This document shows, piece after piece, positions 11,884 through 34,292 of a DNA stretch of 64,000 bases. A model generated the notes under the pieces. It was not told where the DNA came from and searched no databases. It saw only the letters and a program-made list of their open reading frames with translations. A program made the translations under genes and the position numbers. The DNA is taken from the NCBI RefSeq assembly GCF_030384885.1, contig NZ_CP128613.1; one strand, 5' to 3'. Every line of letters starts with the position of its first letter. Position 1 is the first letter of the stretch. Source of the DNA: Escherichia coli (GTDB lineage Bacteria; Pseudomonadota; Gammaproteobacteria; Enterobacterales; Enterobacteriaceae).

Positions 11884-12161
11884 ATCATTCAACAAAATCA
11901 ATCACTTACAAAGCGTTTTTGATTTTGTCATGCATAAATCCCTGCATTAAAATTCCTTTCGCTCGCTCGATTTTTCTTACTACTGATGCTGTTTTTTACC
12001 ATTTTGCTGCGCGTCGGGCATCCACTTTTATGCTCTCGAGTTCACACTCTTAACAACAACTTAGCCATTCCCCCGTTTCTAATGACAAAACAGTTGAACT
12101 TCAATTGTTCCAAACGGATCCTGTGAAGATATATCAAAGGAAATGGATTGTTGGAGGATGG

Positions 12162-13007
12162 ATGAAAAGAAGTGAAATCAGGAAAGCACTGGAAGCATGG
12201 TTTGATGTAGAACGCTATGAGGCGATAGAGAAACTCACCTTACAGCAGTTTTATGTTGAGGTTGAGCGGCGCATCTTGGCTTACAGAATGTTGTTGAGCC
12301 GGAAAACCATACCTACCTTTAACCGATTAATGCTGGATGATTACCGCAACAAGATCCTCAGCGGTGAAATCTTTTTCAGTGGTGATACTGCCACCATTGG
12401 ACATGAGCTTGCCAGAACCTATGCGGTAAACCCTACGACACGAAGCCATGCGCAATTTTATGCGAAAACCCTGTCATTAACCGAAGCCACGCCTGAACTC
12501 TCTGGGTTAAGCCAGTCTGAATTTCTGTCCGAGTATCTGAAAGAGACATCCCTTAATAATCTTTCACGCATTACTGTCGATATTCATCTGGAAGAAGCAT
12601 CAACCGAAGAGATCATTGAACATCTGAAAGTGCTGCTCCCCCAATGGAAGAGACAGCTCAAGATGAAGTCTCCAGCTCCAAGAGAGTATCGTTTTGGTAA
12701 AAGCACATTCAGAAAAATCATTGAATATCGTCTTATCCCGATGATGGACCTGATCTTCTGGGGAGAAGATAATGGCATTAAAATCCCGCTTTCACTGATT
12801 TCTTCGTTGCTTCACGAGGACAGTGACAACGATCGTGATGAAGGAATGCTCAAGGCTACAGATTACCCGTTAGCAATGGCTTTTCTGACTGACGCGAGCT
12901 ATCTGAAATCGCTTGAAGATTACATGATGGAAAACAACCACTTGAGAGACTCCCCGGTTGAAAAGCATGTAGAAGACGACAGGAATAAGAAAAAAGAAGC
13001 CAAGTAA
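12162..13007 (+). CDS. Hypothetical protein (island-borne)
   Basis: ORF 12105..13007; ATG at 12162 (MKRSEIRKALEAWFD...); no recognisable motif. Confidence 0.4.
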   Translation: MKRSEIRKALEAWFDVERYEAIEKLTLQQFYVEVERRILAYRMLLSRKTIPTFNRLMLDDYRNKILSGEIFFSGDTATIGHELARTYAVNPTTRSHAQFYAKTLSLTEATPELSGLSQSEFLSEYLKETSLNNLSRITVDIHLEEASTEEIIEHLKVLLPQWKRQLKMKSPAPREYRFGKSTFRKIIEYRLIPMMDLIFWGEDNGIKIPLSLISSLLHEDSDNDRDEGMLKATDYPLAMAFLTDASYLKSLEDYMMENNHLRDSPVEKHVEDDRNKKKEAK

Positions 13008-13213
13008 AAAGGGTTACGTTCGCTCCGTGCGAACGTGATCGCATCCAGTGTTAACCGTTATCTTTCCATTCGCTTCCCTTCGACATTTTCAAAAAAAACT
13101 TCTTTGAACGTCCCTAAATTGTCATAAGCAAAATCGCTATCATTGTTCACGTCGAAACAACATAGAGAAAACAAAATCTCATAGAGATTACTTACAATAA
13201 TAGAGGACAGACA

Positions 13214-13432
13214 ATGAAAGAAAATATTGAAACCAGCGTAAAACGATTTATCCGCGTTCCTGATGTTTTAAATCGGGTGGGATTCAGTCGCACGACCTTA
13301 TATGAGCGTATTAAGGAAGGAAACTTTCCAGACAGAGTAAAAATAGGTCCGAGGTGTGTCGCTTTTGTTGAAAGTGAGATTGATGAATGGATTGAAGCAA
13401 CTATTCGGAACTCACGCCAGAACGCTGCATAA
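13214..13432 (+). CDS. alpA: AlpA-family phage/island transcriptional regulator
   Basis: 72 aa with MerR-like HTH (RFIRVPDVLNRVGFSRTTLYERIKEGNFP), typical of P4/CP4-57-type elements. Confidence 0.75.
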   Translation: MKENIETSVKRFIRVPDVLNRVGFSRTTLYERIKEGNFPDRVKIGPRCVAFVESEIDEWIEATIRNSRQNAA

Positions 13433-13513
13433 AAACAGAAACAAGATCTCGTGTCGAACAGGTAACTGTTAGCACAGGGCATCTTTTTACCCTTAACAAT
13501 AATGGAGAAGATT

Positions 13514-13804
13514 ATGAAGATTGAACTTATTACGACAAAACAGTTTATTGAACAAGCCGAATGTTATTTCAGGAACTATATGGACGGATTGCGGAGGAAT
13601 GCACCAGATGATTTTTATTATTTTCTCAACAATAAATACAATATGAATGACATTATGGAAAGTATCATTAAAAAAACACGGTATCATTTTTATGATGACA
13701 CCGAAGAAGGCAAAAGGAATCGGATTTATGGAGAAGTAAGCCACAGTAAGGTAAAGCAACACCTTCATCAGCTTTGGATTGTCTATAAGTGTGTATATCG
13801 CTAA
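13514..13804 (+). CDS. Hypothetical protein
   Basis: ORF in same orientation downstream of alpA; no recognisable motif. Confidence 0.3.
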   Translation: MKIELITTKQFIEQAECYFRNYMDGLRRNAPDDFYYFLNNKYNMNDIMESIIKKTRYHFYDDTEEGKRNRIYGEVSHSKVKQHLHQLWIVYKCVYR

Positions 13805-13847
13805 TACTACAGCATTTTATTTTAATATTAACCAAAAGGAAAAGCCA

Positions 13848-31921: not shown

Positions 31922-31945
31922 AGGGCCGTGAGGCCCTTTGTTTCT
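31922..31945. terminator. Bidirectional terminator hairpin
   Basis: AGGGCC-GTGA-GGCCCT stem-loop followed by TTTGTTTCT; between convergent pilV-like and TIR-like genes. Confidence 0.5.
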
Positions 31946-31966
31946 GAGAATTATCTTGGATTTTGT

Positions 31967-32770
31967 CTAAATTATATTATTCATATCTATTGAATATCCT
32001 GCCTCTTTTAATTCTCTTGCTAAACGCATTTTCCACCCTTCATTAGAGTCTATTTTTTCATACGTAATACCAAGAGCATCAGTTGGAATTTCGATATCTC
32101 CCTTTATGAGAACCATTGTTTTTTCTCTACCTAACAATGCGGTAAAATATCCAAGTTCGAGAATGACATTCTGACGGGCTCGAAGGCTTTTATTTTGCTC
32201 ATTGTTAATCGGGTATCCATAATCATCGGGAGTCATCAAGATTACTGCAAAACCCGCTCTTTTTGCAAACTCCTGAAACTTTTCAATTATGGTCATTCCT
32301 TTGTTTATTTGCTCTTGTAAAATGACGGGTTCAACGCCCAGTTTTTCTAGAAATCTCGCAACTGAATGTTTTGTGCCTTCATCATGACCATGAACTAAAA
32401 AAACTGAATTACTTTCAGGTAATTCGGTTTTTAATTCTGATTCATCAAATTTTTCGGCAGTGAATACACCTTCAGTTCCAATGCTAGATCTCCATTTACC
32501 TCTTAATTTATTATTATTGACTAAGCTACAAATTACCGTAACTTTCCCTAACATAACCATCGGGTTTTTATTTCCGGGAGTTAGTTCAATAAACAGGTTT
32601 TCGCTTATTTTTCCTGAAATACTGTATTCATATGCTCCAAGTGCAAGTTCATGTATCTTCGCTGAACCGCTTACATTATTACCGTCTACATTTAGAGTAA
32701 AACTAATCCCACCTTGGTTGGTTCCGGAGATATCACCAGTCCAATAGCCTGAATATACATCATTTAGCAT
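31967..32770 (-). CDS. TIR-like domain protein with uncharacterised N-terminal beta-rich domain
   Basis: C-terminal domain begins VFLVHGHDEG and contains ILMTPDDYG...RARQNVILELGYF motifs typical of the TIR-like nucleotide-binding family; ATG 32770 preceded by GAGGGGAG RBS. Confidence 0.55.
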   Translation of the reverse strand: MLNDVYSGYWTGDISGTNQGGISFTLNVDGNNVSGSAKIHELALGAYEYSISGKISENLFIELTPGNKNPMVMLGKVTVICSLVNNNKLRGKWRSSIGTEGVFTAEKFDESELKTELPESNSVFLVHGHDEGTKHSVARFLEKLGVEPVILQEQINKGMTIIEKFQEFAKRAGFAVILMTPDDYGYPINNEQNKSLRARQNVILELGYFTALLGREKTMVLIKGDIEIPTDALGITYEKIDSNEGWKMRLARELKEAGYSIDMNNII

Positions 32771-32896
32771 ATAACTCCCCTCGCGATAATATTCCATGTG
32801 AATGTTTTATTATTGCAACATACGTCGGATCGTAGCGTAATTATCAATTTAGTATACATTCGAAAAAACGTTTAGCCTTCAACCTCCATTATTTCA

Positions 32897-34114
32897 CTAT
32901 TTACAGTAATCAGTCCACTCATCCATCAGTGCCACCCGCTTAGGCCATAACGTCCCACGTTGATACGCAGCCTCTGCCTTATCTGCCAACTGGTGAGCTA
33001 ACGCATGTTCAATTACTTCACGCGGGTAGTTGGTCGTTTCACCAGCCCAATCACGGAATGTCGATCTAAAACCATGCTGCGTTAAATCTGTGTATCCCAT
33101 TCGTTTTAGGACTGCCAGTAAAGCCGTATCCGAGAGTTGTCCCTTCCGAGTGGCAGGGAATACAAAATTGATACCCTTAAAGCGTGGTAAAGCCTTTAAC
33201 AGGACAACAGCAGCATCAGACAGAGGAACTCGATGCTCCTTCGCTGCTTTCATTCGGCTTGCAGGTATGGTCCACGTTTTACCTTCAAGATCGATCTCTG
33301 ACCACTCGGCACCACGAATTTCTCCTGAGCGTGCCGCGGTCAGTATGGCAAACTCAAGCGCACGAGGCGAAACGCCGCTTCGTTCACGTAGTTCTTTCAT
33401 AAAGGAGCCGATCTGGTTATAGGGAAGAGCGGCATGGTGCTTGGTGATCTGAACTTTACTTGGCTGAGGCAACAGAGGTTTCAACATACCTTTCCATGCG
33501 GCAGGATTATCACCTTCAAAGTATTCTTTGGCCTTAGCGTAATCAATCACCGTTTCAATACGTCCACGTAGACGACTGGCGGTTTCATTCTTGGTTAACC
33601 AGATAGGTTCCAGTATTGCCAGAAGATCCACTTTGGTGATTTCACTAACGGCCTTTTTGCCAATGAAAGGGTAGGCATAGGTCTCCAGTGTGGAACGCCA
33701 TTGAGCGAGATGTTTTTTGTTCTTCATCTCACTGTCTTTGACTTCCAGCACTTCTTCACAACACTCGGCAAAGGTCTTTTTCTTCCGGGCCAGTATTTCC
33801 TGCCGGGATTTTTGCTCGTGTTTTTCTTGAAGGGGATTAATACCATTACGGATTTGTTTACGTAGCTCACGCGCTTTGTCACGCGCTTCGGCTAAGGAGA
33901 CTTCCGGGTAAGGGCCAAGCCCCATATTCAAACGTCTTGGAACTGTTCTACCGAGATTGTTGATTCGGGTTCCCATAGCTACACAAAGAACCCATGCACG
34001 GGACTGATTCCGGATGCGAAGGTATAAACCATCCACACCACCTACGGCATACATACCTTCGGATTTTAATCGTGATACGACGAGTCCTGAGAGTTCCTTG
34101 GCCTTCTTTGGCAT
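32897..34114 (-). CDS. int: P4-type tyrosine integrase
   Basis: 405 aa; LGPYPEVSLAEARDKAREL N-terminal motif and C-terminal catalytic region HGFRSTFRDWA...AYQRG; adjacent to attR. Confidence 0.85.
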   Translation of the reverse strand: MPKKAKELSGLVVSRLKSEGMYAVGGVDGLYLRIRNQSRAWVLCVAMGTRINNLGRTVPRRLNMGLGPYPEVSLAEARDKARELRKQIRNGINPLQEKHEQKSRQEILARKKKTFAECCEEVLEVKDSEMKNKKHLAQWRSTLETYAYPFIGKKAVSEITKVDLLAILEPIWLTKNETASRLRGRIETVIDYAKAKEYFEGDNPAAWKGMLKPLLPQPSKVQITKHHAALPYNQIGSFMKELRERSGVSPRALEFAILTAARSGEIRGAEWSEIDLEGKTWTIPASRMKAAKEHRVPLSDAAVVLLKALPRFKGINFVFPATRKGQLSDTALLAVLKRMGYTDLTQHGFRSTFRDWAGETTNYPREVIEHALAHQLADKAEAAYQRGTLWPKRVALMDEWTDYCK

Positions 34115-34278
34115 AGCAAAATCCTGTCATACAACCCGCCATACATACGGTACTGCATAAAATAGCTGATTGTTTGCACAGTAGCAATACACTACCGAAC
34201 AAAAAAATAATGACAATATTTTGTTTTTAAAGGAAAAATAGCACTTGGGTGGGCATTATCGAACACTAAAAATTTAGA

Positions 34279-34292
34279 CCCTCTCTCCGCCA
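34279..34292. repeat. attR core: direct repeat of serU 3' end (CCCTCTCTCCGCCA)
   Basis: Exact 14 bp direct repeat of 11870-11883, about 165 bp beyond the integrase gene start. Confidence 0.6.

Follow-up and report, generated by a model that had tools for sequence, protein, structure and literature searches.

The tRNA-distal integrase of a serU island in Escherichia coli: a cargo variant of a known element with an apparently reverse-complemented attachment core

P4-type integrase genes generally abut their tRNA gene, a layout that four local examples share. In a 64,000-nucleotide (nt) stretch of an Escherichia coli chromosome (contig NZ_CP128613.1 of assembly GCF_030384885.1; hereafter the window, with position 1 its first letter), a genomic island lies directly downstream of the tRNA gene serU but its integrase gene (int) is found at the far end. 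How did such an element insert, and has it been rearranged since? The original prediction, made from the letters of the window, recorded the island and suggested “an unusual att orientation or internal rearrangement”. Here, the interval 11884-34292 is interpreted as a cargo variant of the serU island already known from E. coli, an integrative and probably mobilizable element inserted by its own integrase; the probability of this reading is put at roughly 85%. The tRNA-distal integrase appears to follow from a lineage-wide, flipped orientation of the 14-nt attachment core, and not from rearrangement.

The integration target serU is a tRNA-Ser(cga) gene at 11794-11883 (+), as annotated by ARAGORN. 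Its final 14 nt, CCA included, make up the first copy of CCCTCTCTCCGCCA (the attL core, 11870-11883, +), and a second exact copy (the attR core, 34279-34292, +) lies 164 bp from the integrase ATG, against an initial estimate of about 165 bp. These are the only exact copies in the window, a third is absent even when one mismatch is allowed, and two matches were recovered in 0 of 100 shuffles. Beyond the exact 14 bp the repeat extends imperfectly, to 19 of 23 nt. The island so delimited measures 22,409 bp, in keeping with the predicted 22.4 kb, and G+C content falls from ~0.50 outside to 0.31-0.46 within it. It is flanked by asnT, mtfA and serU on the left and by zinT, msrQP and hiuH on the right; an insertion at the serU 3′ end within the mtfA-zinT interval occupies the site of the serU island of extraintestinal pathogenic E. 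coli (ExPEC).

Repeated 14-mers are unremarkable alone, since some seven pairs are expected by chance in 64 kb (by arithmetic), and the two copies might be such a coincidence, or the 22.4 kb a tandem composite whose integrase came from a second, smaller element. One copy, however, falls exactly at a tRNA 3′ end, and for a repeat anchored there the arithmetical expectation is only ~64000/4^14 = 2e-4. The lack of a third copy with up to one mismatch led to the rejection of a tandem or composite island, and the same 14-mer bounds both the E. coli island at locus L001 and that of strain Nissle 1917. A further test comes from the unoccupied site. A synthetic empty junction, built from 600 nt on the left (11284-11883) and 600 nt on the right (34293-34892), was searched against 5426 complete E. 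coli genomes, the collection to which all genome counts below refer. It matched strain 2013C-4282 in one piece over 1200 nt at 100% identity, and was matched in one piece with at least 80% coverage in 3808 of the genomes, K-12 included. In 2013C-4282 the left flank (5279-11883) aligns at 100% identity over 6,605 nt and the right flank (34279-54892) at 99.995% over 20,614 nt, and the overlap of the two alignments is exactly CCCTCTCTCCGCCA, leaving a single-copy empty site. This is a near-isogenic strain with an empty site and essentially isogenic flanks. Since the flank alignments join at one copy of the 14-mer, 11884-34292 is an insertion precisely at the 14-nt core. A chance repeat and a second small element are both contradicted by this alignment, and the probability left to either is negligible. 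The bounding repeat of the original prediction, and the comparison with island-free genomes that it had proposed, have thus stood up.

The island occupying this site is already in the literature (PMC7074111; PMC5521745; PMC3198454, Table 1). It is known as the serU island of ExPEC (Williamson and Free, 2005, as cited in PMC7074111), spans 22.5 kb in strains CFT073 and 536, and encodes H-NST and Hfp/H-NSB (PMC7074111). Comparison with serU islands of other strains, which the original prediction had also suggested, gives a consistent picture: the island of Nissle 1917 is 22,508 bp long, has the same CCCTCTCTCCGCCA bounds and gene order, and carries int at the zinT end. The window aligns with it in seven collinear blocks of 87.5-96.4% identity, interrupted where the cargo differs. 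At the protein level, the integrase (Int) is 98.5% identical to the Int of another E. coli serU island, the DUF6387 protein near serU is 98.6% identical to an E. coli serU-island protein, and the full-length H-NS paralogue is 99% identical to the serU-island H-NS; this paralogue, of the Hfp/H-NSB type, occurs together with an H-NST-like protein, the pair described for the ExPEC island (PMC7074111). The mobQ-pilS part of the backbone is present at 90-95% identity in ~536 of the 5426 genomes, while at least 80% of the whole island interval, at ~94.6% identity, is present in 48. The exact variant of the window was found in 0 of the 5426 genomes searched. No block of the window is homologous to the tcpC region of Nissle, and different TIR proteins are encoded instead; tcpC is a B2-subtype virulence marker and a variable cargo gene, not strictly a defining one. 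A serU-island backbone here carries anti-phage cargo (Thoeris, NACHT and TIR genes) in place of the virulence gene tcpC. What is new is this cargo variant, together with core polarity, and not gene order, as the explanation for int-distal versus int-proximal layouts in the integrase family.

The integrase gene (32897-34114, −) encodes an intact tyrosine recombinase of 405 aa with P4-type architecture: an N-terminal Arm-DNA-bind_3 (DUF4102) domain, a central SAM-like domain (Phage_int_M) and a catalytic domain (Phage_integrase). Residues R262, K289, H347, R350, H374 and Y384 do not vary across the alignment, and the catalytic R-K-H-R-H-Y set is intact. Both its P4 type and its tRNA-distal place had been predicted and are upheld by the Pfam matches and by position. 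What, then, sets it apart from integrases beside their tRNA? The int of the high-pathogenicity island (HPI) at asnT and that of an Enterobacteriaceae-associated ROD21-like (EARL) island at asnW each lie 160-180 bp downstream of the tRNA gene, in the same direction. These nearby cases, and the general expectation for P4-type integrases, are what an internal inversion or other rearrangement, shifting int from the tRNA-proximal to the far island end, would have in its favor. The EARL island of E. coli S1, oriented like the window, nevertheless reads DUF6387 (+), AlpA-type helix-turn-helix gene (+), ..., mobQ (−), traD (+), pilin (+), pilV (+), cargo and int (−), with asnW (tRNA-Asn) 180 bp beyond int and in the same direction as int. 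As the EARL and serU backbones are collinear, with int at the same end, no gene has moved; the int/attP module differs, and it inserts the element the opposite way round relative to its tRNA. Order and orientation also match the Nissle serU island. Near the island ends there are no long inverted repeats beyond chance AT-rich matches, for which reason inversion of the whole island was rejected. The core stands 164 bp upstream of int, as it does across the integrase lineage, the geometry of the candidate arm sites relative to int appears conserved, and at least 56 of 80 relatives are alike in core orientation. Rearrangement is accordingly very improbable, and that half of the original suggestion fails. 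The half that invoked an unusual att orientation holds: set against HPI int, EARL int and Ralstonia phage RSY1, the 14-nt core of the window has the reverse-complement orientation with respect to int. A distal integrase is thus the normal architecture of this published island and not a sign of rearrangement.

The extent of this orientation was surveyed at 80 genomic loci encoding relatives of Int (46-98% identity), with 10-kb flanks, from Gamma-, Beta- and Alphaproteobacteria. At nine of the 80 a tRNA-Ser gene was visible on the strand opposite to int and 2-10 kb downstream of it, which is the geometry of the window. Those nine tRNA genes represent several isoacceptors with differing sequences, and each of the nine loci carries an exact copy, 13-15 nt long, of its own tRNA 3′ end, 126-412 bp upstream of int. 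At least 56 of the 80 loci, from many genera, have the corresponding reverse-complement motif, TGGCGG-N8-TC, at distances of 100-450 bp (for the most part 150-220 bp) on the upstream side of int; about 15-20 could not be classified by motif, for example where the tRNA gene does not encode its CCA or has a different acceptor stem. Only L054, L058 and L059 (47-51% identity) have a sense-oriented tRNA-Ser directly ahead of int; at these loci no downstream repeats were found within the fetched 10 kb, save an 11-mer in L058. Sense-oriented cores are also known from phages. The integrases of RSY1 and of Acidovorax phage Acica are homologous to Int over their full length (42 and 48% identical, respectively), and the attP of RSY1 contains the identical CCCTCTCTCCGCCA in sense orientation, 145 bp upstream of int. 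Its attB is reported to be the 15-base 3′ portion of tRNA-Ser(GGA), with the tRNA directly upstream of int in lysogens and the integration confirmed by PCR (PMC5694545). Full-length Int homology and a tRNA-Ser-terminal att core within ~130-210 bp upstream of int place the serU island in the RSY1-type lineage. Comparison of these loci indicates that Int belongs to a widespread lineage whose target is the terminal 13-15 nt of tRNA-Ser genes, at their extreme 3′ end. Integrases of this lineage would mark the tRNA-distal end of their elements, with a reverse-complemented 13-15-nt tRNA-Ser 3′ end ~160 bp upstream, and island finders that expect int beside a tRNA will mis-orient or miss such elements.

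How much of the attachment site is flipped? In relatives L003-L005, L008-L010 and L074 the core is a perfect palindrome, TGGCGGA-N7-TCCGCCA, which points to a pair of core half-sites, each of 7 bp, separated by an overlap of the same length. On this model the 14-mer of the window would open with the overlap, CCCTCTC (7 nt), and end in a half-site, TCCGCCA, that also restores the tRNA end. The opposite half-site is reduced to “TC” in nearly all members with a flipped core. The attP of the lineage would then comprise a ~21-bp core (half-site of 7 bp, overlap, half-site) some 130-210 bp upstream of int. Around it, reconstructed attP sites have direct repeats 12 bp apart in both arms, in the same orientation relative to int. 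With offsets counted from the start of the core and read in the direction of int, the sense-core sites have their int-distal arms at −80/−68 (RSY1) and −71/−59 (Acica) and their int-proximal arms at +140/+152 and +171/+183, respectively. The flipped-core sites are similar, at −62/−50 and +135/+147 in L040, −75/−63 and +136/+148 in L068, and −76/−64 and +144/+156 in L072. In the window, which is likewise flipped, the candidate int-distal pair consists of TAATGCAG (11942-11949, −) at −66 and TTATGCAT (11930-11937, −) at −54, that is, 12 bp apart and 66 and 54 bp from the core. The int-proximal arm of attP/attR (34115-34278, −) contains the candidate site TTATGCAG (34153-34160) at +132 and a degenerate partner, GTATGTAT (34141-34148), at +144. 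The arm sites of the L001 island are the same as those of the window. Since the candidate arm scaffold is the same in sense and flipped types, only the 14-nt core would have been flipped.

It is tempting to extend this further. In a rough neighbor-joining tree the sense-type members fall at several positions among the flipped-type ones, although deep nodes are unsupported, which hints at repeated flips of the core. That the core flipped inside a conserved attP scaffold, apparently more than once, and that excision control could thereby be coupled to read-through from serU, is a tentative proposal, somewhat less probable than its converse. If it is true, the same machinery yields either int next to the tRNA (RSY1, Acica and the three sense-type loci) or int at the distal end (the serU island and most relatives), and the pair formed by RSY1 and the serU island, with an identical 14-mer in opposite polarity, would be a natural system for asking how directionality set by the arms tolerates an inverted core.

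A working model of insertion can be outlined. Int, bound at arm and core sites, would exchange strands within the 7-bp overlap at the beginning of the 14-mer. The DNA of the element must rebuild the tRNA 3′ end, and with flipped core polarity this would place the DUF6387-alpA end beside serU, at attL, and int with its upstream arm at the far junction, attR. The DUF6387 gene (12105-13007, +, likely start near 12162; Pfam DUF6387, 2.9e-53) corresponds to the “843-bp gene” found alongside the recombination directionality factor (RDF) gene of EARL islands (PMC6035254). It is followed by an alpA-family gene for a putative RDF (13214-13432, +; Phage_AlpA, E = 9.5e-19), 1.3 kb from serU and at the tRNA-proximal end as originally predicted; AlpA would act as the excisionase. 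It would thus be a DUF6387-alpA operon, and not int, that lies directly downstream of a strongly transcribed tRNA gene, and read-through could couple the two. No terminator-like hairpin was found between serU and DUF6387-alpA, and a consensus scan after serU was uninformative; a promoter-like site at 11925-11953 (+), a consensus match only, overlaps the candidate arm sites. The excised circle may replicate through a RepL-like protein, and for transfer MobQ would nick oriT and the DNA would leave via the type IV secretion system and thin-pilus machinery of a helper plasmid, with PilS and PilV supplied by the island. No specific helper plasmid of ROD21-type islands emerged from a search of the literature.

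Besides int and alpA, the island encodes a MobQ-type relaxase with a MobA/MobL domain (26888-28369, −; Pfam MobA_MobL, 2.6e-54), and a pilus system represented by pilS and pilV only: a type IVb pilin PilS-like gene (29713-30270, +; Pfam PilS, 2.2e-29) and a PilV-like tip-adhesin gene (30323-31759, +; Pfam Shufflon_N, 2.6e-14). With int, alpA and mobQ it has the gene set of an integrative and mobilizable element, and no type IV secretion genes were found among its open reading frames. A traD-like relaxosome accessory gene (29013-29317, +), recognized by tblastn with the Nissle TraD, is frameshifted, with residues 1-39 in frame +3 and the remainder in frame +2; the Nissle 1917 copy is intact (101 aa). 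Genes for a MobQ relaxase, a TraD-like protein and the pilins PilS and PilV are present in the Nissle and window islands alike, in contrast to the published description of the serU island as having “neither mobilization nor transfer genes” (PMC5521745).

Several points weigh against the interpretation of the island as a mobilizable element inserted by its own integrase in the manner proposed. Mobilization may be impaired, given the traD-like frameshift and the absence of an identified oriT. Most of the 80 surveyed loci were typed by a sequence motif and not by a visible tRNA. The candidate arm sites of the window are AT-rich and include only three good copies, and 12 of 5000 shuffles that preserved the composition of the window arms gave such a configuration, in a test designed after the relatives had been seen and hence post hoc. 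A consensus scan, itself uninformative, gave no convincing sigma-70 promoter for int. Finally, the pair of occupied and empty sites could have arisen if flanking DNA was exchanged by homologous recombination, the route that Messerer et al. propose for B2 islands (PMC5521745). Taken to its conclusion, this would make the island a fixed, immobile remnant whose polymorphism relative to 2013C-4282 stems from en-bloc transfer by flank recombination and not from Int, and the frameshifted traD-like gene is compatible with that. Yet sequence identity in the flanks is 100% over 6.6 kb and 99.995% over 20.6 kb, the junction falls exactly within the 14-mer, int and alpA are intact, and the related islands ROD21, ICEKp258.2 and IE3 excise (PMC3198454; PMC6035254). 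An immobile remnant is therefore considered unlikely, and it would concern the most recent event only, leaving the nature of the repeats unchanged. Insertion of a probably mobilizable island by its own integrase remains the favored interpretation.

From serU, the genes follow the order DUF6387, alpA, H-NST, NACHT, H-NS, DUF4756, RepL-like and thsA/thsB, and then lipoprotein genes and genes of unknown function, relaxase, traD-like, PilS-like, PilV-like, TIR and int. The H-NST-like protein (14217-14459, +; 80 aa) is a truncated H-NS with the N-terminal domain only (Pfam Histone_HNS_N, 1.4e-11), and the full-length H-NS paralogue (16894-17298, −; 134 aa) has both Histone_HNS_N and Histone_HNS domains. 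Between them lies a NACHT NTPase gene (14832-16682, +; Pfam NACHT, 3.8e-10) in a segment that lacks homology to the Nissle island. The other defense-type cargo comprises a type I Thoeris system, with thsA (SIR2-STALD; 21608-23077, +; PADLOC ThsA1, 8.9e-203) and thsB (TIR; 23094-23705, +; PADLOC ThsB1, 1.1e-85), both also recognized by Pfam, and a gene resembling CAP12/Pycsar-type TIR effectors (31967-32797, −; Pfam, 2.3e-37; PADLOC PDC-S35, 6.5e-68). The variable slots at 14832-16682, 21608-23705 and 31967-32797 are thus all filled with anti-phage-type cargo, where Nissle/CFT073-type islands have tcpC, macro-domain and TIR genes. A DUF4756 gene (17455-17934, −) and a RepL-like gene (18127-18684, −), both assigned by profile matches, are accompanied by ~7 tandem copies of the 8-bp unit TTAGCTCT (17990-18053) just downstream of the RepL-like gene, and by two 40-nt palindrome-containing repeats upstream of it (19095-19134 and 19233-19272). 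The DUF4756 gene, the TTAGCTCT repeats and the RepL-like gene (17455-18684) form a possible replication module, and the two kinds of repeat might serve the excised circle as iterons or as its origin.

The surrounding chromosome has its own history. Relative to 2013C-4282 the window lacks 7.1 kb at ~5279-5283 (L084 6841-13995), with the alignments overlapping by 5 nt at the junction; the missing DNA takes in a yeeJ-like Ig-domain gene (3′ part), genes for a LysR regulator and a cysteine hydrolase, and hypE (5′ part). At a distance of 162 bp from asnT (10727-10802) are pseudogene fragments of a P4-type integrase (Arm-DNA-binding and N-terminal parts; ~10263-10565, coordinates transferred from the L084 annotation). 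They have the classical tRNA-proximal layout and are probably the relic of an HPI-type element. Other elements use other sublocations of the serU hotspot. A lambdoid prophage of O157:H7 (L088 4511-5675) has its int 28 bp from serU, with empty-site homology 16 nt past the tRNA, and another prophage leaves a 62-nt serU 3′ fragment beside zinT (L089 ~4001-4060). A second low-G+C stretch, at ~41300-48300 outside the island, contains transposase pseudogenes, hypothetical genes and an OmpC-type porin gene (46574-47797; Pfam Porin_1, 6.5e-144), and is also present in 2013C-4282. The flanks (1-11883 and 34293-64000) are ~94% identical to most E. coli, including K-12, and 100% identical to 2013C-4282; matches of at least 99% were limited to 4 records. 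Such divergence fits the serU/HPI neighborhood as a highly polymorphic recombination hotspot (PMC5521745), or else a divergent strain lineage.

How does the island compare with known systems? It is closest to the Nissle/CFT073-type island, with which it shares the mtfA-serU/zinT site, the bounds, a similar size (22,409 versus 22,508 bp), the tRNA-distal int and a backbone of DUF6387, alpA, H-NST, H-NS, DUF4756, RepL, mobQ, traD, pilS, pilV and int. The two differ in that the tcpC, macro-domain and TIR genes of Nissle are replaced by NACHT, type I Thoeris and CAP12/PDC-S35 TIR genes, in the traD reading frame, and in sequence, the backbones being 87.5-96.4% identical whereas B2 subtypes are ~99.3% identical between themselves (PMC5521745). 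P4 and P4-like integrases (HPI, CP4-57 and pathogenicity islands) have the same domain architecture, catalytic residues, tRNA 3′-end target and AlpA-family partner. The window Int is only 27% identical to HPI int, the block it shares with its tRNA gene is shorter, at 14 nt, and placed at the very 3′ terminus, and its core polarity relative to int is opposite. The P2-like phages phiRSY1 and phiRSX of Ralstonia and Acica of Acidovorax resemble it in the tRNA-Ser 3′-end target, in the distance between core and int and, as far as the candidate arm sites go, in repeats set 12 bp apart; in them, by contrast, the core is in sense orientation and the tRNA lies directly upstream of int in the lysogen, and they are complete viruses whereas the serU island is a mobilizable island.

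Homology of the backbone identifies the serU island as a relative of the ROD21/EARL islands, which it would resemble in operation but whose defining ROD21-type integration module at Asn-tRNA genes it lacks. The proteins of the window and of EARL S1 are 36 (DUF6387), 46 (AlpA/RDF), 60 (MobQ), 80 (PilS) and 50% (PilV) identical, and the EARL gene set is represented by a pilin and a pilus protein, a MobA/MobL relaxase with (frameshifted) TraD, and an RDF with the ~843-bp gene. The two groups also place int and RDF at opposite ends and carry H-NS paralogues and TIR or defense cargo. It has been suggested that the serU island derives from IE3 (PMC7074111). In IE3 of the enteropathogenic E. coli strain E2348/69 (L083 17934-23138), a degenerate serU-type int is followed by DUF262/HEPN cargo and then by an intact EARL-type int beside asnW, which makes IE3 a chimera of serU-type and EARL-type islands. 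IE3 as an ancestor with two integrases was set aside, as the inner int is degenerate and no copy of the 14-mer was found upstream of it; this does not settle the direction of descent. The serU island was already noted to have “a different integrase and a different integration site” (PMC7074111), and the present comparison agrees: Int is only 27% identical to that of EARL S1, and serU with its 14-bp repeat takes the place of the tRNA-Asn targets and 24-37-bp repeats of EARL islands. In those islands int follows the tRNA gene at 180 bp and is read in the same direction, whereas the serU island is oppositely oriented relative to its tRNA.

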